Positions 11,942 to 47,518 of a DNA stretch of 64,000 bases are shown here, piece by piece. Both the position numbers and the translations under genes were made by a program. The stretch covers positions 199,036 through 263,035 of the forward strand of contig JADKJW010000002.1 of NCBI GenBank assembly GCA_016720835.1, in the 5' to 3' direction. The first letter of the stretch is position 1. Each line of letters opens with the position of its first letter. This stretch comes from Ignavibacteria bacterium. Its GTDB lineage: Bacteria; Bacteroidota; Ignavibacteria; SZUA-365. Under the pieces are notes generated by a model, which was not told the DNA's origin, did no database searches, and worked only from the letters and a program-made list of their open reading frames with translations.

Positions 11942-12009
11942 TACTCTCTCCAGAAATATTGAGTTCAGTACGGAACGATGGATTCGGGCGGAGGGATTCC
12001 GCCGGGTGC

Positions 12010-12168
12010 TTAGTTGTTGCCGAGGACGCGGCGCCCCTGGATGATGCGCACGAGGACGACGATCACGGCGATCACGAGTAGGATGTGGATAAAGCCGCTC
12101 ATGGTGTAGGACGTCAGGAGTCCGAGGAGCCACAGCGCGATGAGAACGACGGCGATGATGTACAGCAT
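12010..12168 (-). CDS. lmo0937-family small membrane protein (52 aa); absent from the ORF track because it is under 60 aa
   Basis: ATG..TAA encodes MLYIIAVVLIALWLLGLLTSYTMSGFIHILLVIAVIVVLVRIIQGRRVLGNN. This matches the characteristic lmo0937 family (IxxVILIVLWLLGFI...HLLLVIAVV..GRRV). Confidence 0.6.
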   Translation of the reverse strand: MLYIIAVVLIALWLLGLLTSYTMSGFIHILLVIAVIVVLVRIIQGRRVLGNN

Positions 12169-12224
12169 GGTATGTGCCTTTCAGGATGAAATGGTGCAGA
12201 ATTGTCGTGAAGCGCCGACGAAGG

Positions 12225-28133: not shown

Positions 28134-28196
28134 CAAATTCCGGATTCCGGATTCCGGATTCTGAATTCTGAATTCTGAATTCTGAATTCTGAATTC
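28134..28196 (+). repeat. heptanucleotide tandem repeat array: 1x CAAATTC, 3x CGGATTC, 5x TGAATTC (9 units, 63 bp)
   Basis: Read directly from the sequence: ..caaattc cggattc cggattc cggattc tgaattc tgaattc tgaattc tgaattc tgaattc ttcc. It lies between the stop of gene 28202..29983 and the cupin gene, 145-207 bp upstream of the cupin ATG. Confidence 0.85.
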
Positions 28197-30958: not shown

Positions 30959-31083
30959 GTTGCTCCTCGCACTGCATGCTAACAAATGTCCGCCTGATTG
31001 ACAACAGCGTGCCTTCCGGGTGGCGACCCTCGGAAATAGGTGAGATGCGAGATTCTCACTGCGAACATCGCATATCCGATATC

Positions 31084-31132
31084 TGGATTCTGAATTCTGA
31101 ATTCTGAATTCTGAATTCTGGATTCTGTATTC
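31084..31132 (+). repeat. second heptanucleotide tandem repeat array: TGGATTC, 4x TGAATTC, TGGATTC, TGTATTC (7 units, 49 bp)
   Basis: Read directly from the sequence. It has the same unit and orientation as the array at 28134. It is 126-174 bp upstream of the ATG of gene 30422..30958 and just downstream of the terminator of the large oxidoreductase gene. Confidence 0.85.
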
Positions 31133-31196: not shown

Positions 31197-34100
31197 CTAC
31201 GCCTTGATCTGCTTGATCCGGTCAGTGACGCGCGCGTCGATTTCGAGGACGTTGGCGGTGGCGGCGTTGGTCGGAAGCACCTGGTCGGAGTAGACGATGA
31301 AGTTCGCCTTGCCGTCCGCCGTCTTGAACGCGCCGCGGAGCAGGCCGTTCATGCCGTGCAGCGCGATGATGCCTTCGAGTTCGCGGTGCGTGTCCTCCGC
31401 ACTGCCGTAGCCGTCGCTGCCGCCCATGCGGTGCGCGAGATCGGCGATGAGGTCCAGCGTGTGCCTGCCGCTGAGCGGTTCGCCGATGGGCGTGCTCTCC
31501 TGCCGCATGCCGCACCAGTTGGTGAGGTGCCCCTTCGTCTCGAGGTAGCCCGAGAGCGGCAGGAACACGTCGGCCGCCTGGGCGGTCTCGGTGAGGAACA
31601 TGTCGCCCACCACCACGAACTCGAGGTTCTGCACGAAGGCGTTATACTCGGACGAGACGATCGGATTCTCGCCGAAGATGAACGCCGCCCGCACCTTGTC
31701 CTCGCGCATCTTGCGCGCGAGATTGCTGCCCGAGGCCGCGGCGAGCGCGCGCACATCGGTGTTCCACAGCGCCTGGACGGCGTCCGCCACCGGACCCGCG
31801 TGCATCGGCGCTCCGCCCGGCAGCAGCTTGCTGTCGAACCCCGCGAGCGTCATGCCCGTGTGGTTGGCCTGCCCGGAGAGCAGCGCGAGCCCGCTGCCCG
31901 GCACGCCGATCCTGCCGAGAACCATGAGCAGCGTGGCGAGCGCGCGCAGGTCGCTGGATACGCGGTCGATGCGGCTGTCGATGTTGTACCACGCGACGAT
32001 CTTCTTCTTCGGATCCGAGAGCATGTCGGCGATCTTCAGGATCACCGCTTCCGACACGCCGGTCACCGAACTCACGTCGCCGATGTCGTTCTTCAGCACA
32101 TGCGCCTGGAACGCGTCGAAGTGCGCGGTGCGTCCGTCGATGAAGGCCTGATCCGCGGCGCCGCGGCGCAGCAGTTCGGCGATGACGCCGTTGAGCAGGA
32201 CGGTGGCCGTGCCGCGGCGCGGATCGGCCCAGGCGCCCGCGAAGGGCACGAGATCGATCTTCGCGGAGTTGATCACGATGGCTTCCGCGCCGTGCTTGAT
32301 GCGGCGCTTCACCTGCCAGCCGAGCACCGGATTCTCGCCCGTCGGATTGCCGCCGAGGAAGATGTAGAGGTCGGCGTCGCGCACCTCGTCCGCGTCCACC
32401 GTGGAGACGGTGGCGCCGAGCATGTCGTCGAGCGCGTGGTAGTCGGCCTCACTCGCGAGATGATGGAAGGAGGCGATGGTGTTGGTGCCGATGGCGACGC
32501 GCGCGAACTTGCCCGCGAGGTACAATTCCTCGTTGCTGAGCTTCGGCGATGCCGCGACGAGAATGTGGTCGGCGCTGTGGTCCTCGATCACCTTCTTCAT
32601 GCCCTTCTCCGCGGCCTCGAGCGCTTCGTCCCAGCTCGCCTCCACGAGACGTCCGCCCTTCTTCACCATCGGGCGCGTGGCGCGCGAGCCGTCGAGGTAG
32701 TGCTGGTATCCGAAGCGGCCCTTCACGCACAGTTCGCCGTGATTCGGTTCCGCGTCCGGCGCGGCGCCGGTCACGTAGAACAGGTCGGACGTCTTCACCT
32801 GCAGCGAGAGGGTGCAGCCGACGGAGCAGTAATTGCAGACGTTCGGGACGGCTTCCATGTCCCACGGCCCCTGGCGGCGGAACGGCATCAGCTCGACGAG
32901 CGCGCCCGTGGGGCACACGTCGATGCAGTTGCCGCAGGACACGCAGTTCGTCTCGTGCAGCGCCTTCTCCATGGCCGGCTTCACGATGGTGCGGAAGCCG
33001 CGATTGACGAAGCCGAGCGCCGCGACGTTGAGGATTTCGGCGCAGGTGTTCACGCAGCGCCCGCAGCGGATGCACTTGTTGGAATCGATCTTGATGAAGG
33101 GATGGCGAGAGTCCACCTTGTACTTGTTGAACTCGCCCACGAAGCGCTCCTGCTGCACGCCGTACTCGGTGCAGTAATCCTGCAGGCGGCAGGCCAGGCC
33201 CGCGTCGCAGCCGCATTCGGCGCAGCGCAGCGCTTCCTCGATGGCGGACGTCGTGTCGTAGGCCATTTCCACTTCGTGGAAATCGTTCTTCCGTTCGCCG
33301 GCCGGACGTTCGTGCGCGTGATGCCTGCCGCTCTTTTCGATCGGAGGCAGATCCTTCTCGGTGAGCTTCTGGAAGTTGTCGCGCTTGCTCTCGAAGCGTT
33401 TCGTGAGCGGCGTGACGACGCCCGTTTCGAGGTAGAGCATGATCGCGTCGGCGGCCATCTTGCCGGCGGCGATCGCGTCGATCGCGTCGGCCGGACCCGT
33501 CACGACGTCGCCGCCGGAGAAGACGCCCGGTCGCTCGGTGTGGAAGGTGCCCTTCGCGGCTTCGATGGTCTTCCACTTCGTGATCTTGATGCCCGCGTCG
33601 TTGTGCACGCCCGTCAAATCGGCTTCCTGGCCGATCGCCGAGATCACCCAGTCGCACGGGAAGTCGTGCTCGGAGCCCTTCAGCTCCACGGGACGGCGTC
33701 GTCCGCTGGCGTCGGGTTCGCCGAGTTCCATGGTGATGCATTCGACGGAGACCACGCGGTCGTTCTCCACATTGACGCGCGTCGGCGCCTGCAGGAATTC
33801 CATGCGCACGCCTTCTTCTTCGGCGGCGACGATCTCCACCATGTTGGCGGGCATTTCCTTGCGCGTGCGGCGGTAGAGCAGCACCACTTCGTCCGCGCCG
33901 AGGCGCAGCGAGGTGCGCGCGGCGTCGATGGCGGTGTTGCCGCCGCCGACCACGACGACGCGGCCCTTGACCGGCGGCGCGCTGCCCATGGTCACCTGCT
34001 TGAGGAATTCGACGCCGCTGAGCACGCCGGGGACATTCTCATTCTCGACCTGCATCGGCTTGCCCACCTGCGCGCCAAGCGCGACGAAGACGGACTGATA

Positions 34101-34931
34101 GCCCTGCGTGAAGAGATCGTCCATCTGGAAATCGACGCCGAGACGCTGGTTCACGTGCACGTCAACGCCGAGCTTCGTGACCCAGCCGATTTCCTTGTCG
34201 AGCACGGCCTTCGGGAGGCGGTACTCGGGAATGCCGTAGCGGAGCATGCCGCCCATTTCGGGGAGCGCCTCGTAGATCGTCGGTTCGTAGCCCTCGCGCA
34301 CGAGGTAGTACGCGCAGGTGACGCCGGCGGGACCGCCGCCGATGACCGCGACGCGCTTGCCGTTGCGCGGTTTCACGTCCGGCGTCCACATGTCGCCCGC
34401 CATGTCGAGATCCGACGCGTAGCGCTTGAGGAAGTCGATGCCCACCGGCTCGTCGATGAGGTTGCGGCGGCAGTTGAGCTCGCACTTGCGCGTGCAGACG
34501 CGGCCGCAGACGGACGGCAGCGGGTTCTTCTCCTTGATCAGCTCGATCGCCTCGGTGAACTTTCCGAAGCTGATGAGCGACATGTAGCCCTGGATGTCGA
34601 TGTCCGCCGGACAGGCGAGGCGGCAGGGGCCGAAGCAGTCCGCGTAATGATCGGACAGCAGCAGCTCGAGGCAGGTCTTGCGGGCGCGGCTGACGCGTTC
34701 GGAGCGCGTCTGGATGACCATGCCCTCGGCCACCTTCGTCGAGCAGGCGGGGAAGAGGCGGTTCTGCCCCTCCACCTCCACCACGCAGAGAAAGCAGGAG
34801 CCGAAGGGCGGGAGTTTCTCGTCGTAGCAGAGGGTCGGGATGGTATCGATGCCCTGCTCGTGACAGACCGCGAGGATGGTCTTGTCAGGGGACGCGGTGA
34901 CGGTGTTGCCGTTGATCGTGAGTGTGAGCAT
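31197..34931 (-). CDS. multidomain oxidoreductase fusion (1244 aa): 2Fe-2S ferredoxin + GltD/NfnB-like FAD/NAD(P) flavoprotein + NuoG-type [4Fe-4S] modules + formate-dehydrogenase-family molybdopterin (MopB) domain lacking the Cys/Sec Mo ligand
   Basis: N-terminal 2Fe-2S Fd (..CHEQGIDTIPTLCYDEKLPPFGSCFLCVVEV..). GltD-like Cys cluster plus Rossmann motifs (VAVIGGGPAGVTCAYYL; VVVVGGGNTAIDAART). His/Cys Fe-S segments (CAECGCDAGLACRLQDYC; CIRCGRCVNTC; CVSCGNCIDVCP). MopB 4Fe-4S (CNYCSVGCTLS..ELCVKGRFG). By eye-alignment to FdhF (..VDCCARVUHGPSV..) the corresponding stretch is ..TIASFHHLASEADY.., so no Cys or Sec is present. The antisense 1250-aa ORF 31356..35108 is junk. Confidence 0.7.
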   Translation of the reverse strand: MLTLTINGNTVTASPDKTILAVCHEQGIDTIPTLCYDEKLPPFGSCFLCVVEVEGQNRLFPACSTKVAEGMVIQTRSERVSRARKTCLELLLSDHYADCFGPCRLACPADIDIQGYMSLISFGKFTEAIELIKEKNPLPSVCGRVCTRKCELNCRRNLIDEPVGIDFLKRYASDLDMAGDMWTPDVKPRNGKRVAVIGGGPAGVTCAYYLVREGYEPTIYEALPEMGGMLRYGIPEYRLPKAVLDKEIGWVTKLGVDVHVNQRLGVDFQMDDLFTQGYQSVFVALGAQVGKPMQVENENVPGVLSGVEFLKQVTMGSAPPVKGRVVVVGGGNTAIDAARTSLRLGADEVVLLYRRTRKEMPANMVEIVAAEEEGVRMEFLQAPTRVNVENDRVVSVECITMELGEPDASGRRRPVELKGSEHDFPCDWVISAIGQEADLTGVHNDAGIKITKWKTIEAAKGTFHTERPGVFSGGDVVTGPADAIDAIAAGKMAADAIMLYLETGVVTPLTKRFESKRDNFQKLTEKDLPPIEKSGRHHAHERPAGERKNDFHEVEMAYDTTSAIEEALRCAECGCDAGLACRLQDYCTEYGVQQERFVGEFNKYKVDSRHPFIKIDSNKCIRCGRCVNTCAEILNVAALGFVNRGFRTIVKPAMEKALHETNCVSCGNCIDVCPTGALVELMPFRRQGPWDMEAVPNVCNYCSVGCTLSLQVKTSDLFYVTGAAPDAEPNHGELCVKGRFGYQHYLDGSRATRPMVKKGGRLVEASWDEALEAAEKGMKKVIEDHSADHILVAASPKLSNEELYLAGKFARVAIGTNTIASFHHLASEADYHALDDMLGATVSTVDADEVRDADLYIFLGGNPTGENPVLGWQVKRRIKHGAEAIVINSAKIDLVPFAGAWADPRRGTATVLLNGVIAELLRRGAADQAFIDGRTAHFDAFQAHVLKNDIGDVSSVTGVSEAVILKIADMLSDPKKKIVAWYNIDSRIDRVSSDLRALATLLMVLGRIGVPGSGLALLSGQANHTGMTLAGFDSKLLPGGAPMHAGPVADAVQALWNTDVRALAAASGSNLARKMREDKVRAAFIFGENPIVSSEYNAFVQNLEFVVVGDMFLTETAQAADVFLPLSGYLETKGHLTNWCGMRQESTPIGEPLSGRHTLDLIADLAHRMGGSDGYGSAEDTHRELEGIIALHGMNGLLRGAFKTADGKANFIVYSDQVLPTNAATANVLEIDARVTDRIKQIKA

Positions 34932-34939
34932 GGGGCACC

Positions 34940-36697
34940 TCAGTTCTTTTCAACCGCATCGAAGCGGCAGACGGTGAAGCATTTTCCGCATTTGATGCAT
35001 TTGTCCTGTTCGACCACGTGCAGCACCTTCTTGCCGCCGAGGATGGCCTCGGTGGGACAGGCGCGCGCGCAGACCTGGCAGCCGGTGCAGGCCTCGTTGA
35101 TGGTGTAGGTCAGCAGCGCCTGGCACTCGTGCGCCGGACATTTCTTGTCGACGATATGCGCGACATACTCGTCGCGGAAGTACTTCAGCGTCGTGATGAC
35201 GGGATTCGGAGCTGTCTGTCCGAGACCGCAGAGCGAGGCCGCGCGGATCTGGTCGCTGAGTTCCGAGAGGTTGTCGAGGTCGTCCATCGTGCCTTCGCCG
35301 CTCGTGATGCGCACGAGGATTTCGAGCATGCGCTTGGTGCCGATGCGGCAGAAGGTGCACTTGCCGCAGGATTCGGCCTGCGTGAAGGTGAGGAAGAAGC
35401 GCGCGACGTCCACCATGCACGTCGTTTCGTCCATCACGATGAGGCCGCCCGAGCCCATGATGGCGCCGGTGCGGTTGATCTGCTGATAGTCGATCGGAAG
35501 CTCGCACATTTCGGCGGGGATGCAGCCGCCCGACGGGCCGCCCATCTGCACGGCCTTGAACTTCTTGTCGTCGTTGATGCCGCCGCAGATGTCGAAGAGG
35601 ATCGAGTTGATGGTGATGCCCATGGGCACTTCCACGAGGCCGGTGCGCCGCACCTTGCCGGCCATCGCGAACACCTTGGTGCCCTTGCTGTCGGCGGTGC
35701 CGTAGGCCGCGAAGGCCGCGCCGCCGTTGGTGATGATCCACGGGATGTTCGCGAAGGTCTCGACGTTGTTGATGCTCGTCGGCTTGCCCCAGAGGCCCGA
35801 GATGGCCGGGAAGGGCGGCCGGAAGCGCGGCATCCCGCGGCGGCCCTCGATGGACGCGATGAGCGCCGTCTCCTCGCCGCACACGAAGGCGCCGGCGCCT
35901 TCCTTGATGCGCACGTCGAAGGCGAAGTCGGTCCCGAGGATCTTCTCGCCGAGCATGCCCCGCTTCTTCGCCTGCGCGATGGCCTGGCGCAGCAGCGCCA
36001 CGGCTTTCGGATATTCGGCGCGGCAGTAGATCACGCCCTCGTCGGCGCCGATCGCGTAGCCGGCGATCATCATGCCCTCGAGCACGGCGTGGGGGTCGCC
36101 CTCGAGCACCGAACGGTCCATGAACGCGCCGGGATCGCCCTCGTCGGCGTTGCAGATGATGTACTTCTTGTCGCCCGCGGCGCCGCGCGTGAATTTCCAC
36201 TTCGTGCCCGTCGGGAAGCCACCGCCGCCGCGCCCGCGGAGGCCGGAGGCGAGCACGTCCTCGATGACGGCTTCGGGCGTCATCGTGGTGACGGCCTTCT
36301 CGATGGCCGTGTAGCCGCCCGTGCCGATGTACTCGTCGATGGAACCCGGATCGATGCAGCCGCAGTTGCGGAGCACGATGCGGACCTGGTTTTCGAAGAA
36401 GCCCGGTTCGCGCCCTTCGCCGATCACGATCCAGTCGTCGATCGCCTCGTCTTTCACGAGATCCTCTTCCACGATGCGGCCGACGCGCTCGGGCGTCACT
36501 TCGCCGTAGGTGTAGGACGCGCCGCTGCCGTTGCTGATTTCCACGAGCGGCTCGCGATAGCACATGCCGATGCAGCCCGTCTCTTTCAGGATGAATGCGC
36601 CCGGACGCTCCTTGAGCTCGTCCATGAAGGCCTTGTACACTTTTTCCCCGCCGGCGGAAATGCCGCAGGTGCCGAGTCCGATGGTCACGGTTTTCAT
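34940..36697 (-). CDS. NuoF/HydB-like NAD(P)H-binding flavoprotein subunit with N-terminal thioredoxin-like 2Fe-2S domain and C-terminal 2x[4Fe-4S] ferredoxin domain (585 aa)
   Basis: FMN/NADH motifs (GRGGGGFPTGTKWKF; ICNADEGDPGAFMDR). The 4Fe-4S N3 site is ESCGKCTFCRIG. C-terminal CTGCQVCARACP / CIKCGKCFTVCRF. The alternative-frame ORF 34950..36563 is junk. Confidence 0.8.
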   Translation of the reverse strand: MKTVTIGLGTCGISAGGEKVYKAFMDELKERPGAFILKETGCIGMCYREPLVEISNGSGASYTYGEVTPERVGRIVEEDLVKDEAIDDWIVIGEGREPGFFENQVRIVLRNCGCIDPGSIDEYIGTGGYTAIEKAVTTMTPEAVIEDVLASGLRGRGGGGFPTGTKWKFTRGAAGDKKYIICNADEGDPGAFMDRSVLEGDPHAVLEGMMIAGYAIGADEGVIYCRAEYPKAVALLRQAIAQAKKRGMLGEKILGTDFAFDVRIKEGAGAFVCGEETALIASIEGRRGMPRFRPPFPAISGLWGKPTSINNVETFANIPWIITNGGAAFAAYGTADSKGTKVFAMAGKVRRTGLVEVPMGITINSILFDICGGINDDKKFKAVQMGGPSGGCIPAEMCELPIDYQQINRTGAIMGSGGLIVMDETTCMVDVARFFLTFTQAESCGKCTFCRIGTKRMLEILVRITSGEGTMDDLDNLSELSDQIRAASLCGLGQTAPNPVITTLKYFRDEYVAHIVDKKCPAHECQALLTYTINEACTGCQVCARACPTEAILGGKKVLHVVEQDKCIKCGKCFTVCRFDAVEKN

Positions 36698-36701
36698 GGC
36701 A

Positions 36702-37208
36702 TCACTCCTGCATCGCGGTGGCGGTGGCGCGGACGAGCCGCTTCTGTTCTTTCATCAGCTTGATGAGCTTCTGCGAGGTCAGGCGTCCGTGCGTCTCGCC
36801 GTTGATGGTGATGACGGGCGCCAGCGAGCAGCAGCCGATGCAGGCCACGGACAAGAGGCTGAACTGTCCGTCGTCGCTGGTTTCATCGTAGCTGATGCCG
36901 AGTTCGTCCTGGATGGTGTTGTACACCGAGCGCGCGCCGTTGACGTGGCAGGCCGTGCCGTTGCAGACCTTCAGCACGTTCTTGCCGAGCGGCTTGGTGC
37001 GGAACTGGGCGTAGAAGGTGACGACGCCGTAAATCTCCGCCGCGGGAATGCCCGTCACGTGGCTGATGTAGTCGATCGCCTTCTCGGAGACGTACCCGTA
37101 CGTGTCCTGGGCGGACTGCAGCAGCGGAATCAGGGCGCCGGCGTGACCGTCGAACTTCCAGAGTTCGACGTTGAACGGCTTGAAGTCCAGAGTGTGGGTT
37201 TCTTCCAT
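36702..37208 (-). CDS. NuoE/HydC-like thioredoxin-fold [2Fe-2S] subunit (168 aa)
   Basis: ATG at 37208 (MEETHTLDFKPFNVELWKF...). The 2Fe-2S ligands are ..VCNGTACHVNG.. and ..VACIGCCSLAPV... It ends 5 nt before the NuoF-like gene. Confidence 0.75.
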   Translation of the reverse strand: MEETHTLDFKPFNVELWKFDGHAGALIPLLQSAQDTYGYVSEKAIDYISHVTGIPAAEIYGVVTFYAQFRTKPLGKNVLKVCNGTACHVNGARSVYNTIQDELGISYDETSDDGQFSLLSVACIGCCSLAPVITINGETHGRLTSQKLIKLMKEQKRLVRATATAMQE

Positions 37209-37228
37209 GTGCGAACCTGTGGTGCGGT

Positions 37229-37723
37229 CTAGAGGTGGGAGAGATTGATGACCCAGTCGTGTTTCATGCGGAGCACGCCGTCCATGCCGCGGAGGCGGTC
37301 GCCGATCGTCGCTTCGAGATCCTCGAAACTGCTGCCGCGGAGCAGGGCGACGATGTCGCATTCCCCGGTCGTCATCGAGCAGAACACGACGTGGGGATCC
37401 GCTTTCATGGCGTCGCGCACGGCATCGCGCGACTCCGGCTCCGTGTCCAGATACACGTAGCCGTGACAGGCGTCGTCGTCGGGCGTCGCGGCGCCTTCAT
37501 CGTCGGTTTCGATGTCGAAGCGCTCGATGTGGCCGATGCCCGGCAGGGCGGCAATGCCGCAGGGCAGTTCGGGACCGTCGAGCAGCACCTTCATCACGAG
37601 ATTGTGCTGGCCCTCCACCGCGTCCCAGCGAAGGACGCCCGGGCAGGTCCTGACGGCCTCCACGGCCGGCAGCATGGAATTCGTGTCAGGGAAACGCGCG
37701 ACGACGTAGGCATGGGTGATCAT
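37229..37723 (-). CDS. stand-alone tandem RAM-domain (Lrp/AsnC C-terminal ligand-binding domain-like) protein (164 aa)
   Basis: ATG at 37723 with AAGGAG RBS. There are two ~75-aa repeats (MITHAYVVARFPDTNSMLPAVEAVRTCPGVLRWDAVEGQHNLVMKVLL... / CHGYVYLDTEPESRDAVRDAMKADPHVVFCSMTTGECDIVALLRG...) resembling the AsnC-type regulatory domain. No HTH is present. Confidence 0.45.
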   Translation of the reverse strand: MITHAYVVARFPDTNSMLPAVEAVRTCPGVLRWDAVEGQHNLVMKVLLDGPELPCGIAALPGIGHIERFDIETDDEGAATPDDDACHGYVYLDTEPESRDAVRDAMKADPHVVFCSMTTGECDIVALLRGSSFEDLEATIGDRLRGMDGVLRMKHDWVINLSHL

Positions 37724-38231
37724 ACCTGGCTCCTTGAGGGTGCATGAATGGACGCCGCCCGGGCACAGCCGGACCGCGTCTCGGAATTTCCGCAACGGGA
37801 ATGAGGCGCAATGAAGCGGGGAGAGGAGAACAACACTGGAGGGCGGAGGTGCAGCTGATGCATGAGGTGCGGAAACGCGCCATTGCAGCGCGGGTGAATT
37901 CGTGACGGTGTCACGAAGAGTGAATCACGTAGCGTACCAACAGGTCCGAAAGGGCAAAGCGGCAGGAATATCGAGCGCCAATTTGCGCAATCGGACAATA
38001 CTGCACAAACGCTTCGCAAAATTGAGAATTCGGATAAATAATAGAGAGTATTTGTGCAATTGCGGGCCCCGGGGGTGTAACCCGCTGCATTCCCTGATTG
38101 TCAGTTCCCTGAGAATCGGCATATTGATCGAACGGAAGAATCCCGCACAGTCCCCCCTGGCGGGAGGCTTGACAGTGAGCCCCGGAAGTGCCGATCTTTC
38201 CTCCCTCGTTTCACACAGGAATTCTGATGAC

Positions 38232-39800
38232 ATGAAGCACCTCATGGTCCTTTTTTCGGTCCTGTGCGGCATTTCCGCGCAGGAGGGTCTCGCCCAGAAA
38301 GCCGGGGACGGTATTTTCGGCGGCATCCAGGTCCACACCATCAACCTGCGTTTCCCGCGGACGGATTATTGGGACTCCCTGCTCTTCTATTACAACCGCG
38401 GCGACGAGCAGTGCATCCTCGCGCATGCCGTGATCGACGGCATCGCCATCGACAGCATCGGTGTCCGTTTCAAGGGCAATTCCTCCTTCAACCATCCGAA
38501 CAACAAGAAATCCTTCCGTCTGTCCTTCGATGAGTTCAGGGACGACGGACGCTGGGACGCCTTGAAGGGCGTGCACCTCAACAACATGTGGGGCGACCCG
38601 TCCTTCATGCGCGAGAAGCTGTACCTCGATTTCTGCAGCGCCGCGGGCATCGCCGCGCCGCGAGCCAACTACGCGCGCCTCTCGATCAACGACACCCTCT
38701 TCGCCTTCTACTCGCTCGTGGAGCACGTGGACAAGACCTTCCTCGACACGCGCTTTTCGAACAAGGCCGGCAACCTCTTCAAGGCGGTGGACGGCATCGG
38801 CGCGGGCGACTCGCTCATCTCCGATTTCGCATGGCTCGGCCCGGACACTGCGCGTTATCTCCCCCGCTACGAACTGAAAACGGACGGATCCCTCACCGCC
38901 TGGCCGCAACTCATCGGTTTCATCGACACACTCGCGAACTCCTCCGACAAGGCCGCAACCATGCAGCGCGACGTCGACCTCCCCGCGCTCGACAAGGCGA
39001 TCGCAGCGGACATCCTCTTCGCGAACCTCGATTCCTACATCAACAGCGGACGGAACTTCTACGCGTATTTCCATTCGAAGACGGGCAAACTCTCCTGGAT
39101 CATCTGGGATGCGGGCCTCAGCTTCGGCGCCTACGGCGGCGGCGTTTCGACGCCCGAAAATCTCAACGTCACCTACCTGATCAACGCCGCGAACCGTCCA
39201 CTCGTCGGTACGATTTTCAGCGTGCCCGCTCTGGCGAACGAGTACCTCGTGACGCTGTGCGCGCTCCATTCCTCCTCCTTCACGGCGGCGCGCATGTTCC
39301 CGCACATCGACAGCGTCGCGGCCCTCATCCGGCCGCACATCTCCGCGGATCAGCGAAAGATGTACACCAACCAGCAGTTCGAGACGAACATTTCGAACGA
39401 CGTGACGGTCGGCGGCTCGCGCAAGCCGGGATTGAAGTCGTTTCTGACGGCCCGCGCCGCGAGCGTGCAGGCGCAGCTCACCGCGCTCGGCATTTCCTGC
39501 GTCACAGATGCGGAGCGTGCTGACGCCCCGGTGGCGATGCAGGTCGCGCTCGCGCAGAACTATCCCAATCCCTGCGCGCGGCGAACGACGATCAGCTACA
39601 CCCTGCCAGCGAGCGGACTCGCGACGCTCACGGTCTACGACGCGCTCGGCCGTGCCGCTGCAACACTCGTCGACCGCGCGGAGGACGCCGGAACGCACAA
39701 CGCCGCCTTCGATGCGAGCGCGCTGCCCGGCGGCATGTACCACTACGAACTCGTGCAGGGTCGGTCGCGCGCCGCGCGCACCCTCCTGGTACACCACTGA
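38232..39800 (+). CDS. CotH-family (spore-coat-protein-H-like kinase fold) secreted protein with T9SS C-terminal domain (522 aa)
   Basis: ATG at 38232 (MKHLMVLFSVLCGISAQEG signal). CotH-like segments (..NNKKSFRLSFDEF..; ..LDSYINSGRNFYAYFHSKTGKLSWIIWDAGLSFG..). The CTD is ..LAQNYPNPCARRTTISYTLPASG...ARTLLVHH. The antisense ORF 38211..39863 is junk. Confidence 0.65.
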   Translation: MKHLMVLFSVLCGISAQEGLAQKAGDGIFGGIQVHTINLRFPRTDYWDSLLFYYNRGDEQCILAHAVIDGIAIDSIGVRFKGNSSFNHPNNKKSFRLSFDEFRDDGRWDALKGVHLNNMWGDPSFMREKLYLDFCSAAGIAAPRANYARLSINDTLFAFYSLVEHVDKTFLDTRFSNKAGNLFKAVDGIGAGDSLISDFAWLGPDTARYLPRYELKTDGSLTAWPQLIGFIDTLANSSDKAATMQRDVDLPALDKAIAADILFANLDSYINSGRNFYAYFHSKTGKLSWIIWDAGLSFGAYGGGVSTPENLNVTYLINAANRPLVGTIFSVPALANEYLVTLCALHSSSFTAARMFPHIDSVAALIRPHISADQRKMYTNQQFETNISNDVTVGGSRKPGLKSFLTARAASVQAQLTALGISCVTDAERADAPVAMQVALAQNYPNPCARRTTISYTLPASGLATLTVYDALGRAAATLVDRAEDAGTHNAAFDASALPGGMYHYELVQGRSRAARTLLVHH

Positions 39801-39820: not shown

Positions 39821-41968
39821 ATGTCACACGCATTCGCACACAAGGATTTCCGAATGAACGCACGCATACTCCGCTTCGCGTTGCTCGTGCTCTTCACGCA
39901 GACCACCGCGGCGCAGGACTGGCACTGGCTCAATCCGCTGCCGCAGGGCAACACCCTCACGGCCGCGCAGTTCGCCTCCGACGGGACCCTCTACGCCGCC
40001 GGGGATGGCGGCAGCGTGCTCAAGAGCGCGGACGGCGGCGCCTCGTGGAGCATCCTCTCCACCGGCACGCGCGCACAGCTCACGGCGCTGGCGGTGATCA
40101 GTCCCGAGCTCGTCTTTGCTGCAGGCGGTGACGGGACGATCCTGAAGACCAGCGACGGCGGCGCCACCTGGACGAAGCTCCCGACCGGGACCTCGTCGTG
40201 GCTCTTCGGCATCGCCTTCGCCAACGCCAACACCGGCTTCGCCGTCGGCGATGCGGGCATCATCCTGAAAACCACCAACGGCGGCGCGTCGTGGGTGGAG
40301 CTGGTCAGCGGCAGTCCGAATCCGCTCTCCGCCGTCGCGGCCATCGATGCTTCCATCGTGTACGCCTCGGGCGTCTCGGGCACCATCCTGAAAACCATCG
40401 ATGGCGGCAAGAACTGGATCCTACAGACGACGGGCACCTTCAACGGCCTGTACTCCCTCTCGTTCACGAGCGCGAACACGGGATACGCCGTTGGCAACGG
40501 CGGTATCATTCTGAAGACCACCGATGGCGGCGCCACATGGCTGCCGCAGACGAGCGGTACGGGAGACTGGCTGCTGTCCGTCACCTTCCCGACTCCGGAC
40601 ACCGGCTATGCCTGCGGCTATAACGGCACGGTTCTCGTGACCGGCAATGGCGGCGCAGTGTGGACGAAGCGCGCATCGGGCAAACCCGTCACCCTTGGCG
40701 CAATCGCGTTCTCATCCGCCAGCACGGGTTGCGCGGTCGGAGAGTTTGGCGCGATGCTCACCACCAGCGATGGCGGAGCCGCATGGCGGATCCGCTCGTC
40801 GGGCGGCAGCACGCAGTATTTCGGCGTGCACTTCCCGAGCGCGATGCTCGGTTTCGCTGTCGGCGATAACGGCATCATCAGCAGAACGACGGACGGTGGA
40901 TCCTTCTGGGTGGATCGCAACAGCGGCACCGCCAACATGCTCCAATCAGTCTTCTTCCCCGACACGTCGACGGGATACGCCGTCGGCGATGTCGGCACGA
41001 TTCTCAAATCCGTGGACAATGGCAGGACCTGGCTCCCGCTCAACAGCGGCGTGTCGGACTGGCTCATGTCCGTGCATTTTCCGAGCCCATCGATCGGCTA
41101 TGCAAGCGGCTACAACAACACGATTCTCAAGACCACGAACGGCGGAGTCGACTGGGTGCGGCAGAAAGGCGGCGGTACCGATGTCATCACGTCCATCCAT
41201 TTCGTGACCAGCGACATCGGCTACGCGGTGGGTGGCGATGGATACGGAACCAACGGCATGATCTTCAAGACCACCGACGGGGGCGCCGTCTGGACGCATC
41301 AATACGATCATCCCTCCTCCATGCTGATGTCCGTCTACGCATCCGGGCCGGATGTCTGCTATGCCGTGGGCTACAACGGGACCATCGTGAAGACGACGAA
41401 TGGCGGTGCGGACTGGCAGTATCTGACCGACGAAAACAGCAGCATCCTCTACTCCGTCACCCTGTTGAGCGCGACGCACGCCTTCACGGCCGGCTACAAC
41501 GGGACCATTCTCGAATCAACGGACGGCGGAGACACCTGGATCGAACACCGCAGCGGCACCAACAACATGCTGACCGGCATCGTCTTCCCGGACGCGGCTA
41601 CCGGGTATGCGGTTGGAGCGGGTGGAACGATTCTGAAATCAGGCGCCTTCGTCAACGCGGTACACCAGCCCCTGGAAGTCGCTCGCACCGAAACATTCAC
41701 GCTGTCCCAGAACTTCCCGAACCCCTTCGGCGCAGCAACGGGTTCTCCGGCAACGACGATCGCCTTCCGGCTTTCCATCGCATCCCCCGTGCAGATCCGG
41801 GTGTACTCGATGCTCGGAGTTCACGTGGCCACCCTCGTCGACGGGCGTCTCGATGCTGGCGACCATCTCGCGCGCTTCGACGCGTCGGCCCTCCAGGCAG
41901 GAGTGTATTTTTGCACCGTCAACGTCAACGGACTCACCCGCACGATGCGGATGCTCCTGTCCAAGTAA
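39821..41968 (+). CDS. Ycf48/BNR-like repeat beta-propeller protein (two propellers?) with T9SS C-terminal domain (715 aa)
   Basis: There are ~12 repeats of W..L..GT...L..I.F.....G.AVG..G.ILKT.DGG.TW. The CTD is FTLSQNFPNPFGAATGS...TRTMRMLLSK. Alternative start MNARIL at 39854. Confidence 0.6.
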   Translation: MSHAFAHKDFRMNARILRFALLVLFTQTTAAQDWHWLNPLPQGNTLTAAQFASDGTLYAAGDGGSVLKSADGGASWSILSTGTRAQLTALAVISPELVFAAGGDGTILKTSDGGATWTKLPTGTSSWLFGIAFANANTGFAVGDAGIILKTTNGGASWVELVSGSPNPLSAVAAIDASIVYASGVSGTILKTIDGGKNWILQTTGTFNGLYSLSFTSANTGYAVGNGGIILKTTDGGATWLPQTSGTGDWLLSVTFPTPDTGYACGYNGTVLVTGNGGAVWTKRASGKPVTLGAIAFSSASTGCAVGEFGAMLTTSDGGAAWRIRSSGGSTQYFGVHFPSAMLGFAVGDNGIISRTTDGGSFWVDRNSGTANMLQSVFFPDTSTGYAVGDVGTILKSVDNGRTWLPLNSGVSDWLMSVHFPSPSIGYASGYNNTILKTTNGGVDWVRQKGGGTDVITSIHFVTSDIGYAVGGDGYGTNGMIFKTTDGGAVWTHQYDHPSSMLMSVYASGPDVCYAVGYNGTIVKTTNGGADWQYLTDENSSILYSVTLLSATHAFTAGYNGTILESTDGGDTWIEHRSGTNNMLTGIVFPDAATGYAVGAGGTILKSGAFVNAVHQPLEVARTETFTLSQNFPNPFGAATGSPATTIAFRLSIASPVQIRVYSMLGVHVATLVDGRLDAGDHLARFDASALQAGVYFCTVNVNGLTRTMRMLLSK

Positions 41969-44900: not shown

Positions 44901-45929
44901 TGGAGCGATCAGCAGGCGGGCCAGACGATCCCGGTCGTGTTGCGGGGTGCGGGCGTCGCGGTGATGCGCCCGATTCTGCGGACCCATGTCGACACGCTGC
45001 GCTTCGACACGACAGTCGTCGGCACGCCCGTCCACGGGACCCTGGTCGCGACCAATGCCGGCAACGCGGCGCTCGTCGTGCAGTCGCAGGGCCTTTCGGG
45101 AGCGGACGCCGCGCGTTTCTCGTCGCAGACATCCCTCCCGCGCACCTTGCAGCCGGGCGACACGGCGCGCCTCGCGTACACGTTCACGCCCGCCGCGGAA
45201 GGGCCCGCCACCGCGATGCTCGTGTTGACGAGCAATGATGCCGTGGCGCCGAACACGACCGTGCTCCTGCTCGCGCACGCCATGGCCGCGCCGTCGCCGC
45301 GCATCGCCGCGAGCCTGTCCGCCGTGGATTTCGGCGACGTGACCGTGGGATCGACAAAAGACACATCAGTCCTGATTTCAAACACCGGCACCGCCGATCT
45401 CCTGCTCTCCGGACAAGCGGTGACGGGTGCGGACGCCACGCAGTTCGCGGTGCCCGTCCCGGCGTCCGCGACCGTGTCCGCGGCGCAATCATCCCGTGTG
45501 ACACTGCGATTCTCGCCCACGGACGCCGGTCCGAAATCCGCCATCTTCCGCGTCCTGTCGAACGACGGCCTGCAGCCGCAGCTCGACATCGCCCTCCGCG
45601 GCATCGGCAGCGCGCCCAGCGCGACGGACAACCCCGCGCGCGCGTCGCTCATCGATCTCGGACAGAACTATCCGAATCCCTTCGGCGCCGGCTCGCCGAC
45701 CGGCGGCGATCGCACCACGATTCCCTACCACCTCCGCGCCGCCGGGCACGTCACGCTTTCGGTGCGCGACATGCTGGGACGCGAGGTCGCCCTCCTGACC
45801 GACCGCTTCGAGGAGGCGGGCCGGCACACCGCGGAGCTGCACGCCCGCGCGCTGCCCGCCGGCATCTATGTGTACCAGTTGACCACAGGCGCCCGCGTCG
45901 CGTCGCGGACGCTGCTGCTTCTGCGATGA
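41987..45929 (+). pseudogene. ASST-like (arylsulfotransferase-type) beta-propeller fused to ~800 aa of choice-of-anchor-D/Ig-like modules + T9SS CTD; interrupted by a 1-bp insertion in an A3 run at 42818-42820
   Basis: Frame 1 (41987..) matches the paralog 45926..47518 up to ..GDFLYRWGQS and then becomes junk. Frame +1 (the 42786 ORF) continues ..NYRAPGSAYFNVVHCGSWIPAGLPGAGHIMAFNN.., collinear with the paralog (..NYGAPGSKVFDVVHCAVWIPEGVPGAGHIMAFNN..). Removing one A from tgcAAAttacc restores the frame. Downstream are repeated ~100-aa modules (DFGxVxxGxxxxRxxxxxNxGxxxLxV..GADAxxF..) and a T9SS CTD (..LGQNYPNPFGAG...TLLLLR). Confidence 0.6.
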
Positions 45930-47518
45930 GCGCGGCAGAATCCAACCACCACGTCCACTCTCACCACCCATTGCCGATGCACCCTGCTCCACGTCTCGCC
46001 GCCGCCCTCGCGCTGTTCTGCGCCATTCTCGCCGCACCCACCATGCCTGCGCGCGCGCAGGCCTTCGACGGATACACGCTCTACGCGCCGAACGGCTCGC
46101 GCACCACGTATCTCATCGACATGAAAAAGGCCACGGTGCACACCTGGACGCACACGAAGAGCATCGGCTATTCGTGCTATCTGCTCGGTGATGGAAGTCT
46201 GCTCCGCTCCACCATGGTCAGCAATCCCCAGCTGGGTTCGGGCGGCGCCACGGGCGTCGTGCAGCGCGTGTCGTGGGAAGGCGCCCTGCTCTGGAACTAC
46301 ACGTACAGCAGCGCCACGTACCTCGCGCACCACGACATCTGCGCGATGCCCAACGGCAACGTCCTCCTGATCGCCTGGGAAGTGAAGACCGCCGCGCAGG
46401 CGGTGGCGGCCGGACTCAAGCGCAGCACCGTCATCTGGCCCGATCACCTCATCGAAGTGCAGCCCACCGGTTCGAGCGGCGGCAACATCGTGTGGCAGTG
46501 GCATGCCTGGGACCATCTCGTGCAGGACTACGACGCCACCAAGGCGAATTACGGCGTGGTGGCCGACCATCCCGAACTTCTGAACATCAACATGGGCGCG
46601 AGCGGCATGGGCGTTCAAGGCGGGGATTGGATGCACATCAACGGCCTGAGCTACAATGCCGCCCTGGATCAAATCGTGATTTCCTCGCACACGCTCAATG
46701 AAGTGTACGTCATCGACCACAGCACGACGACCGCCGAAGCCGCCACGCATTCCGGCGGACGCTGGGGAAAGGGCGGCGACATCCTCTATCGCTGGGGCAT
46801 GCCTTCCAACTACGGCGCCCCCGGAAGCAAGGTGTTCGACGTGGTGCATTGCGCGGTCTGGATCCCGGAGGGCGTCCCTGGCGCGGGCCACATCATGGCG
46901 TTCAACAACGGCGCCGCGCAGCGGCGTTCCGTGGTCGTCGAACTGGCGCCTCCCGTGGACGGCAACGGCGCGTACACGCGCCAGGCGGGACAGGCGTTCG
47001 GACCCGCGAGCCCGAGCTGGTCCTACACCGCAAGCGATTTCTTCTCGAACCATCTCGGAAGCAATCAGCGCCTCCCGAACGGGAACACCTTCATGGTGGA
47101 ATCGACCACGGGAAACATGGTGGAATGCGATCCGGCCGGTGCGGTCGTGTGGAGCTACGCGAAAGGTGGAGAAATCGTCAGGGCCGTGCGCTACGCCCCG
47201 TCGTACCCGGGCGTGCAGAAGCTCACCGGCAACGGAGAGGTCCCGGCGCTTCCCTCGTCGCCGGAACTCGTCTCGATCTCGCCGAATCCCGTCTCCTCGA
47301 TGGCCACGGTGTCGTATCGCCTGCCGGAACGGATGACTGTCGCCATCACCGTCGTCGACGCGCTCGGGCGGGAGGTCGCGACGCTCGCGGACGGACTGTC
47401 CGACGCGGGTTCGCACAGCGCGCGCTTCGACGCCTCCGCGCTGCCCTCCGGCGTGTACTACTGCCGGATGCTCACCGCCGCAGGTGTTTCGATGCTGCCG
47501 CTGCAGCGAGTGCGATAA
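45926..47518 (+). CDS. ASST-like beta-propeller protein with T9SS-type C-terminal domain (530 aa), paralog of the upstream gene
   Basis: ATG overlaps the upstream stop (cgATGAgc). The signal peptide is probably MHPAPRLAAALALFCAILAAPTMPARAQA, so an internal start at 45977 is possible. Conserved blocks HHDICAMPNGNVLLIAWE, WHAWDHLVQDYDATKANYGV. The C-terminus LVSISPNPVSSMATVSY...VSMLPLQRVR is a T9SS CTD. Confidence 0.65.
   Translation: MSAAESNHHVHSHHPLPMHPAPRLAAALALFCAILAAPTMPARAQAFDGYTLYAPNGSRTTYLIDMKKATVHTWTHTKSIGYSCYLLGDGSLLRSTMVSNPQLGSGGATGVVQRVSWEGALLWNYTYSSATYLAHHDICAMPNGNVLLIAWEVKTAAQAVAAGLKRSTVIWPDHLIEVQPTGSSGGNIVWQWHAWDHLVQDYDATKANYGVVADHPELLNINMGASGMGVQGGDWMHINGLSYNAALDQIVISSHTLNEVYVIDHSTTTAEAATHSGGRWGKGGDILYRWGMPSNYGAPGSKVFDVVHCAVWIPEGVPGAGHIMAFNNGAAQRRSVVVELAPPVDGNGAYTRQAGQAFGPASPSWSYTASDFFSNHLGSNQRLPNGNTFMVESTTGNMVECDPAGAVVWSYAKGGEIVRAVRYAPSYPGVQKLTGNGEVPALPSSPELVSISPNPVSSMATVSYRLPERMTVAITVVDALGREVATLADGLSDAGSHSARFDASALPSGVYYCRMLTAAGVSMLPLQRVR

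Follow-up and report, generated by a model that had tools for sequence, protein, structure and literature searches.

A probable Stn/NfnABC-type electron-bifurcating transhydrogenase locus with a linked tandem RAM-domain gene in an Ignavibacteria genome

Transhydrogenases of the Stn/Nfn type, which belong to the Bfu family of electron-bifurcating enzymes, have been described from several hosts. StnABC of Sporomusa ovata was reported in 2020 (PMC7483475) and solved by cryo-electron microscopy (cryo-EM) in 2023 (PDB 8OH5; PMC10482914). NfnABC of Caldicellulosiruptor saccharolyticus was likewise solved by cryo-EM (PDB 9BOV; PMC11829005), and a structure is available for Nfn-Bfu of Thermococcus sibiricus (PDB 9N5U; PMC12018979). 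In StnC, a GltD module (aa 102-565) is inserted in a NuoG-like protein (PMC10482914), and both StnC and C. saccharolyticus NfnA have a catalytically inactive FdhF-like C-terminal domain (PMC10482914, PMC11829005). The bacterial enzymes are tetramers of heterotrimers held together by the large subunit. Nfn-type BfuB sequences from Bacteroidetes were already listed by Schut et al. 2022 (PMC9304861). Here we describe a four-gene unit in a 64-kb stretch of DNA (‘the window’) from an Ignavibacteria metagenome-assembled genome (MAG; contig JADKJW010000002.1), which was compared with related genome loci, given L-numbers below. Its three large genes very likely encode a Stn/NfnABC-type Bfu complex, of a family that balances NADH, NADPH, and ferredoxin in anaerobes, while its first gene encodes a protein of two RAM domains.

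Four co-directional minus-strand open reading frames (ORFs) fill positions 31197-37723, separated from 5' to 3' by gaps of 20, 4, and 8 nt. The genes, coordinates, and domains proposed in an initial annotation of this DNA were borne out by the ORF map, the translations, and Pfam. A Shine-Dalgarno sequence, AAGGAG, stands in front of the RAM gene ATG at 37723. The features are as follows.

37229..37723, minus strand: tandem RAM gene; 164 aa, no helix-turn-helix (HTH); PF01037 AsnC_trans_reg, E 2e-13
36702..37208, minus strand: NuoE-like gene (BfuC / StnA / NfnC); 168 aa; PF01257 2Fe-2S_thioredx, E 2e-49; mobile [2Fe-2S] cluster C1
34940..36697, minus strand: NuoF-like gene (BfuB / StnB / NfnB); 585 aa; flavin mononucleotide (FMN)/NAD(H) subunit
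31197..34931, minus strand: fusion gene (BfuA / StnC / NfnA); 1244 aa; Fd-GltD-NuoG-MopB
33252..34661, minus strand: GltD/NfnB-like module, aa 91-560 of the fusion; motifs read from sequence and alignment
31200..32861, minus strand: FdhF-like MopB domain, aa 691-1244 of the fusion; from alignments to formate dehydrogenases (FDHs)
32454..32459, minus strand: codons of Ala826 and Ser827, at the positions of the Mo/W-ligating Cys/Sec and the neighbouring catalytic His
37724..37901, no strand: intergenic region 5' of the RAM gene, common to a divergent gene for a CotH protein with a type IX secretion system (T9SS) domain (ORF map, sequence); presumed promoter region of the four-gene unit

The gene map and Pfam matches show adjoining genes for the BfuC, BfuB, and BfuA subunits of a Bfu enzyme, namely a NuoE-like protein with a [2Fe-2S] cluster, a NuoF-like protein, and a NuoG/HydA-like protein. 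The last of these contains the GltD-like flavin adenine dinucleotide (FAD) domain with an NADP(H) site found in Stn/Nfn-Bfu members (PF14691, PF07992, and motifs). In phmmer searches of the PDB, the best solved relatives of the large subunit were 9bov_A (E 1.6e-258; labelled ‘molybdopterin oxidoreductase’, 1178 aa), 8oh5_C (1.5e-232; ‘formate dehydrogenase-O major subunit’, 1172 aa), and 9n5u_A (2e-196; NfnA). Those of the NuoF-like subunit were 9bov_B (1.1e-258) and 8oh5_B (8e-252), followed by 9n5u_B. The NuoE-like subunit matched 9n5u_C (NfnC, 4e-45) and 9bov_C (3e-44) best, together with HydC and 8oh5_A (StnA). The order NuoE-NuoF-fusion was kept in nearly all of 80 related genome loci. 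These relatives, with the BfuB-specific sites described below, agree with the earlier proposal of a Bfu-family complex built on a NuoE/NuoF core and of the Stn/Nfn-Bfu transhydrogenase type. The accompanying suggestion that the fusion was undescribed and possibly a new variant had to be given up, as StnC (1172 aa) and NfnA (1178 aa) have the same architecture.

The core subunits resemble the bifurcating enzymes closely. Residues 4-583 of the NuoF-like subunit align to C. saccharolyticus NfnB 3-582 (9bov_B, 863 bits) and S. ovata StnB 3-581 (8oh5_B, 840 bits) with one single-residue gap, and identity is 63% to C. saccharolyticus, 62% to S. ovata, and 61% to T. sibiricus. Pfam recognized Complex1_51K, NADH_4Fe-4S, a C-terminal 2x[4Fe-4S] domain, and, weakly, an N-terminal thioredoxin-like 2Fe-2S domain. 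All cluster cysteines are kept: the B1 [4Fe-4S] cysteines are conserved along with the FMN/NADH motifs, two CxxCxxCxxxC motifs at 536-577 form the ferredoxin-docking domain (B3, B4), and the thioredoxin-like domain at the N terminus (B5) has Cys11/Cys42/Cys46 as in C. saccharolyticus and S. ovata. His514-x5-Cys520-x4-Cys525 corresponds to the BfuB-diagnostic B2 His/Cys site, whose His is lacking in just 8 of 1558 BfuB sequences and in the non-bifurcating homologues (PMC9304861). The signatures of bifurcation sought on this subunit, that is the B2 His, the B3/B4 motifs, and the N-terminal B5 domain, were thus all found. In the NuoE-like subunit, the cluster motif CNGTAC...CIGCC is conserved.

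Comparison of scores across the PDB gave 863, 840, and 810 bits for Nfn/Stn, 656-770 for Hyd, and 389-426 for the non-bifurcating FdsB/Nqo1, and a neighbour-joining tree placed the NuoF-like subunit among Nfn-type BfuB sequences. With the bifurcating B subunits scoring far above FdsB/Nqo1, the objection that this subunit might belong to a non-bifurcating clade is not upheld. The complex might still be a non-bifurcating NAD(P)H oxidoreductase, either an NADPH:sulfur or NADPH:Fe(III) reductase, as NsoABC and SfrAB were initially proposed to be, or a plain NADH:NADP+ transhydrogenase. The homologues Nso and Sfr were first described with such activities (cited in PMC7483475), and bifurcation cannot be shown from sequence. 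However, none of the BfuB-specific features that non-bifurcating homologues lack is missing here (B2 His, B3/B4 domain, N-terminal B5 domain), and the closest relatives, with a 62-63% identical core subunit, are experimentally bifurcating. We regard a non-bifurcating enzyme as very unlikely.

The modules of the large subunit follow each other as in StnC and NfnA. Pfam assigned Fer2_4 (1-77), Fer4_20 (101-177), Pyr_redox_2 (193-490), Fer4_Nqo3 (611-678), Molybdop_Fe4S4 (692-744), and Molybdopterin (750-1152, E 1e-36). Residues 1-700 are 49% identical to C. saccharolyticus NfnA and 45% identical to S. ovata StnC. The fusion keeps the [2Fe-2S] cysteines 35, 46, 49, and 63, the cluster motifs H95-C99-C103-C107 and C142-C146-C150-C154, and CxxCxCxxxxC at 570-581 with the dicluster domain. 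An FAD motif GxGxxG (GGGPAG) lies at aa 198-203 and an NADPH motif GxGxxA (GGGNTA) at aa 329-334, followed by YRR at aa 353-355; these cofactor motifs are invariant columns in the homologue alignment. Alignment to the C. saccharolyticus, S. ovata, and T. sibiricus proteins identified Lys169 as the equivalent of T. sibiricus NfnA K165. This residue ligates cluster A7, and the K165E variant had a bifurcating activity of 0.05 U/mg vs 17.2 U/mg for the wild type (PMC12018979).

The sequences themselves show the homology, the order of the domains, the motifs that ligate the cofactors, and the lost FDH active site. We infer the substrates and the bifurcation from the characterized homologues, and the following steps are carried over from those that have been solved (PMC10482914, PMC11829005). 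NADPH would be oxidized at the FAD of the GltD-like module in the 1244-aa subunit, and the electrons would then pass singly along the [4Fe-4S] chain A7-A6-A3-A2-A1 to the NuoF/NuoE core with its [B1-FMN-C1] site. Here, the electron pairs would be split by FMN together with two clusters, B1 [4Fe-4S] and the mobile C1 [2Fe-2S]. High-potential electrons would go to NAD+ at the FMN, and low-potential electrons to ferredoxin by way of a moving C1 and the NuoF-like subunit's C-terminal B3/B4 clusters. The FdhF-like C-terminal domain would perform no molybdopterin chemistry and act as a scaffold; in Stn it makes tetramer contacts.

The loss of the active site in this domain was seen in HMMER alignments of residues 688-1244 to four FDH-type chains, including FdhF of the T. 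kivui hydrogen-dependent CO2 reductase (HDCR; 7qv7_S), a tungsten FDH (7vw6_A), and YjgC (8rqz_C). The positions of the Mo ligand, the His, and the Arg are taken by Ala826, Ser827, and Ser1019, the last at the equivalent of FdhH Arg333, where RGQNNVQG reads SGQANHTG. The alignments end at about FDH residue 500, domain IV is a short stub, and Pfam found no Molydop_binding match (PF01568, domain IV) in the fusion. The N7-type [4Fe-4S] cluster of the MopB domain is kept (C699, C702, C706, C735). In a multiple alignment of the large subunits of 88 loci, the triad columns are unconstrained wherever NuoE/NuoF genes lie upstream, with A, V, T, L, F, G, N, D, S, K, and others all occurring. Cys-His-Arg stands there in five gammaproteobacterial GltD-FDH fusions from Aliivibrio, Photobacterium, and Aeromonas (L071, L072, L075, L076, L079), which have about 140 more C-terminal residues and a full MopB domain and lie without NuoE/NuoF neighbours. 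These five fusions served as a positive control that validates the alignment. They are probably genuine NAD(P)-linked FDHs and may resemble the ancestor of StnC. Within the clade, identity among homologues was 36-59% in the MopB-like part vs 55-86% in the redox modules, and this faster divergence fits a structural role.

The initial annotation had aligned the fusion to FdhF by eye and supposed that the Mo-ligating Cys/Sec was lost and the MopB domain non-catalytic. Proper alignment agreed, finding no intact FDH ligand and, in addition, the loss of the catalytic His and Arg. The competing view is that the locus encodes an NAD(P)+-dependent FDH of the FdsABG type with an added GltD module. The MopB-like part scored 198 bits against FdhF 7qv7_S vs 134 and 132 bits against the corresponding parts of C. 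saccharolyticus NfnA and StnC, and the public labels of the fusion are ‘formate dehydrogenase major subunit’ and ‘molybdopterin-dependent oxidoreductase’. Yet Cys/Sec, His, and Arg are all replaced and the enzyme is therefore no FDH; the triad is free to vary in the NuoEF-linked homologues, whereas the genuine gammaproteobacterial fusions retain it, and S. ovata Stn shows no formate activity (PMC7483475). The active-site columns and the absence of domain IV led us to reject an FDH identity, which we consider extremely improbable. Judged by these columns, the MopB-like domain is catalytically dead.

The first gene of the unit was previously read as encoding a double RAM domain, which was substantiated by Pfam, an AlphaFold2 model, and Foldseek. 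The model (predicted local distance difference test score 82.6) consists of two beta-alpha-beta-beta-alpha-beta modules. Each of these superposes on stand-alone RAM modules and Lrp/AsnC RAM domains (2djw, 2e1a, 2zbc) with a root-mean-square deviation (rmsd) of ~1 Å over 74 residues, and the canonical T-G-x-x-D motif is preserved in the second. Taken as a whole, the chain is most like generic tandem ferredoxin-like proteins in Foldseek, and phmmer against the PDB gave a single marginal match (E 0.31). A relationship to sirohaem decarboxylases (NirDL/AhbAB) was considered and dropped, the likeness being that of the generic tandem ferredoxin-like fold at 10% identity and an rmsd of 7 Å. No HTH was found in the Pfam scan or the model, and so the protein is not an Lrp/AsnC regulator. 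It has the RAM fold without a DNA-binding domain, as do stand-alone RAM proteins; its two modules in tandem and its linkage to an operon go beyond what defines that group.

A RAM gene lies directly 5' of the NuoE-like gene in 19 loci from two clades of the family. A hidden Markov model (HMM) of the RAM protein found its target immediately 5' of the NuoE-like gene in the window, L001-L011, L058, L023, L027, and L045, and nowhere else in ~1.5 Mb of flanking sequence. In a reverse look-up starting from RAM proteins, 5/5 were directly upstream of NuoE-NuoF-fusion genes (L085-L089). On these grounds, the RAM gene is not a chance neighbour. In most RAM-linked loci, the RAM part is fused to a response-regulator receiver (REC): in L004, L008-L011, L058, L023, L027, and L045, the tandem RAM forms the C-terminal half of a ~328-aa protein, whose N-terminal half is a receiver with the acidic pocket, phospho-acceptor Asp, Thr, and Lys. 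A single-sequence search with the RAM protein, based on a word index, returned only 5 relatives, and hence a profile of locus-derived orthologues was used. It found 763 REC-RAM proteins, nearly all of 328 aa and mostly labelled ‘response regulator’ or ‘CheY-like’, and the five traced back to their loci were among these. The receiver-less tandem RAM form is a small family, with only 88 clusters at E<=1e-10 in the exhaustive profile search, mostly of 160-165 aa. Neighbour joining of the NuoF-like subunit puts the RAM-linked loci in two clades, with the receiver-less form limited to the subclade of the window. The RAM protein of the window appears to be a receiver-less descendant of the REC-RAM response regulators of sister lineages.

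Sensor genes adjoin several of these operons. Directly downstream of the large-subunit gene lies a PAS-domain gene in L004 (9699-11747), L085 (15240-16987), and L086 (15213-16886); 2/3 of these, in L004 and L085, also encode a histidine-kinase ATPase domain, and in L004 a sigma-54 activator gene follows as well. The PAS/kinase genes together with REC-RAM suggest a two-component system around the operon. Upstream, a classical NfnAB-like pair (NAD_binding_1 and DHODB_Fe-S_bind; Fer4_20 and Pyr_redox_2) lies directly next to the REC-RAM gene in L085 (4458-7916), L087 (4298-6639), and L088 (4591-6917), so that two bifurcating transhydrogenases stand side by side with a regulator gene between them. 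The two are presumably not simply redundant there, and the regulator may choose between the stn-like enzyme and NfnAB in this sister clade. GltD-like genes were also found near the operon in L008-L010 and L045.

Some stn-like operons differ in what precedes them. In L020, from a Dehalococcoidales MAG, the NuoE-like gene is preceded at a distance of 4 nt by a 114-aa ORF (346-687), which gives a weak match to a single RAM (E 1.5e-4). Operons without RAM, from other Stn clades, carry other upstream genes in L012 (3907-5618), L014 (3260-5527), L025 (4536-5429), and L030 (2616-5074). Inspected by eye only, these resemble genes for an Fe-hydrogenase-like Fe-S sensor, a kinase-like ATPase, a zinc-ribbon protein of ~130 aa that occurs twice in L025, and proteins of the CBS/DRTGG and PHP kinds, and they recall the regulatory sets beside HydABC operons. 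None of them is reported for S. ovata (PMC7483475).

From its linkage and domain pedigree, the RAM protein is most likely a small-molecule-sensing regulatory partner of the enzyme, a lineage-specific sensory module. It could affect either transcription via a partner or the enzyme directly. The initial annotation had suggested metabolite sensing attached to the complex; such attachment is conceivable, and what the loci themselves document is a linkage of genes that is strict in two clades, with a regulatory pedigree seen in the receiver fusions and the PAS sensor genes nearby. That RAM and REC-RAM proteins act on the enzyme and not on DNA, as an allosteric or phospho-controlled regulator or a fourth subunit providing a metabolite-responsive on/off switch, is a tentative idea that we hold possible rather than likely. 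If true, no post-translational control module would have been described for a Bfu enzyme before this one, flux would perhaps be partitioned between the bifurcating complex and the adjoining classical NfnAB, and RAM would be a response-regulator output domain of a kind that we have not found described.

Several observations weigh against a Stn/NfnABC-type bifurcating enzyme with a regulatory RAM partner. The characterized enzymes are only 45-49% identical in the large subunit (residues 1-700), and the metal at B5, which can be Zn or [2Fe-2S], is not readable from sequence. At the GltD cluster, the ligand positions are Ile113/Cys142 here (GltD-type CGRVC) vs Cys113/Ile142 in C. saccharolyticus and S. 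ovata. The RAM protein has no known ligand, partner, or DNA-binding domain, and its gene is tightly spaced from the NuoE-like gene in the receiver-less clade (20 nt in the window, 11 nt in L001, 9 nt in L002), which also fits a stoichiometric subunit. To these must be added the NfnAB-like pair immediately upstream in the sister RAM-linked clade (L085, L087, L088). Concerning the cluster ligands, an 80-locus alignment showed the Cys113/Ile142 state to be limited to a Firmicutes group and Cys142 to be common to most other lineages. The Cys142 state and the higher score of the MopB-like part against FDH suggest that the clade of the window is less derived than the studied Firmicutes enzymes.

Two further explanations draw on these observations. 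In the first, the RAM-linked subclade would differ from canonical Nfn in role, direction, or regulation, for example as a conditionally activated second transhydrogenase beside NfnAB. The upstream NfnAB-like pairs and nearby GltD-like genes speak for this, as do a dedicated sensor module that C. saccharolyticus and S. ovata lack, the ancestral-type GltD cluster ligands, and the less diverged MopB domain. On the other hand, all substrate-binding motifs equal those of Stn/NfnABC, the 64-kb window holds no NfnAB pair, and the occurrence of Stn together with Nfn in one organism is on record (PMC7483475), so that a distinct role seems unlikely. In the second explanation, the tandem RAM protein would be a stoichiometric fourth subunit, or a NapD-like assembly chaperone for the large subunit, and no regulator. 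In addition to the short gaps, the missing DNA-binding domain and faint NapD matches (PF03927) in RAM relatives would be consistent with this. The NapD matches are at fold level only, however, no such subunit is part of the heterotrimers purified as Stn and NfnABC (PMC10482914, PMC11829005), and the receiver-fused homologues and adjoining PAS sensor genes point to signalling. We find a subunit or chaperone doubtful, if less so than a distinct role of the enzyme, and retain the regulatory partner as the preferred interpretation of the RAM protein.

The enzyme itself is an Ignavibacteria addition to a family that has already been purified, assayed, and solved. The large subunit has >8000 relatives, the closest of which, at 64-75% identity, belong to MAGs of Zixibacteria, Bacteroidota, Ignavibacteriales, Acidobacteriota, and Verrucomicrobia. 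Many are labelled ‘formate dehydrogenase major subunit’ (JGI), the NCBI label being ‘molybdopterin-dependent oxidoreductase’; an NCBI entry for the fusion already exists as ‘MAG: molybdopterin-dependent oxidoreductase [Ignavibacteria bacterium]’. No NCBIfam equivalog was reached at cut-off by the fusion, the NuoF-like, or the RAM protein, and therefore the enzyme is named by no curated model; the NuoE-like subunit passes only the generic NuoE model NF005722. The public FDH and molybdopterin labels mislead the metabolic reconstruction of uncultured Zixibacteria, Acidobacteria, and Fibrobacteres-Chlorobi-Bacteroidetes (FCB) group genomes, and should read NADH/NADPH/ferredoxin transhydrogenase. 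The ancestral-looking features of the window's clade, namely the CGRVC ligand and the FDH-closer MopB domain, help to reconstruct the origin of Stn from a GltD-FDH fusion of the sort that gammaproteobacteria still have. AsnC/Lrp is unmentioned in PMC9304861 and PMC7483475, as is regulation in PMC12018979. The RAM linkage is the sole feature that we did not find in the Stn/Nfn-Bfu papers searched. It is a modest lead, but the strictly linked RAM/REC-RAM gene makes it a testable one on the cellular control of electron bifurcation.

The surroundings of the operon consist of secreted, T9SS-type, and other unrelated or unannotated genes, and no ferredoxin, pyruvate:ferredoxin oxidoreductase, Rnf, NfnAB, or kinase neighbour was found in the window. 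Rfam and tRNA scans of the whole window gave no match. Scans for sigma-70 promoters and terminators gave counts at or below those of shuffled sequence, and no promoter was identified, the sigma-70 model being uninformative for this lineage. ORFs of 1250 and 581 aa on the opposite strand over the operon, where the sequence is 63% GC, were set aside as high-GC shadow ORFs because every domain match is on the minus strand. A perfect inverted repeat, TTCGTGAC-N3-GTCACGAA (37899-37917), is found where the divergent CotH-like ORF starts, ~180 nt upstream of the beginning of the RAM gene, and could be an operator. Just downstream of the operon, two minus-strand arrays of the heptamer CAGAATT (28151-28196 and 31080-31132; ~6-7 tandem copies each; 19 overlapping matches vs 0.03 expected) bracket a ~2.9-kb segment, in which GC dips to 0.60. 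Within it are a 623-aa ORF rich in Ala/Thr/Gly/Ser and a second, small ORF, both without Pfam matches. Large secreted-type proteins are encoded at 7646-12451, 37902-39797, 39821-41965, and 45926-47515. One, of 1602 aa, has an ice-binding-like domain and ten Big_5 repeats, and the remaining ones, of CotH, BNR/YCF48-like, and arylsulfotransferase-like type, bear T9SS (Por_Secre_tail) sorting domains. Such sorting domains fit an FCB-group host, and the secreted-type genes are unrelated to the operon.

Among the known systems, StnABC of the acetogen S. ovata (PDB 8OH5/8OH9) has the same gene order and the same domain architecture in every subunit as the Ignavibacteria MAG, including the GltD insertion in the NuoG-like protein and the inactive FdhF-like C-terminal domain, and all core cluster motifs are conserved. 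It differs in that StnC is 72 aa shorter, with a more diverged MopB part and Cys113/Ile142 in place of Ile113/Cys142, and in that metVF and pabAB flank the stn genes, beside which no RAM gene is reported (PMC7483475). NfnABC of C. saccharolyticus (PDB 9BOV/9BP5) is the best overall solved match for the large and NuoF-like subunits and has the same cofactor-binding motifs; the 113/142 ligand swap, the more diverged MopB part, and the lack of a reported RAM gene set it apart in the same way. It has Zn at both B2 and B5 (PMC11829005). Of the archaeal enzymes, Nfn-Bfu of T. sibiricus (PDB 9N5U) and NsoABC of T. litoralis, NfnC is the solved chain that the NuoE-like subunit matches best, NfnB and the NuoF-like subunit share 61% identity, and the A7 Lys ligand K165 is conserved as Lys169. 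The archaeal NfnA is, however, ~200-280 aa shorter, with a partial FdhF-like domain and one cluster fewer, and is monomeric.

More distant systems share single parts of the locus. The HydABC and NiFe-HydABCSL hydrogenases have a homologous BfuBC core (B subunit 656-770 bits) and presumably the same FMN/B1/C1 mechanism, but they have H2 as third substrate, for which they use an H-cluster or NiFe module, whereas the protein of the window has a GltD-type NADPH site. The FDHs (FdsABG, FdhF) and the gammaproteobacterial GltD-FDH fusions have a homologous MopB fold with the N7-type [4Fe-4S] cluster, and the fusions also share the GltD insertion; they retain Cys-His-Arg and a full domain IV in contrast to the Ala-Ser-Ser and truncated domain IV seen here. 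Stand-alone RAM modules or demi-FFRPs (TTHA0845, 2DJW; DM1, 2E1A; STS042, 2ZBC) and Lrp/AsnC proteins match each half of the RAM protein at ~1 Å rmsd. The RAM protein of the window is distinguished from them by two modules per chain, the absence of an HTH, strict synteny with a redox operon, and receiver-bearing sister proteins.

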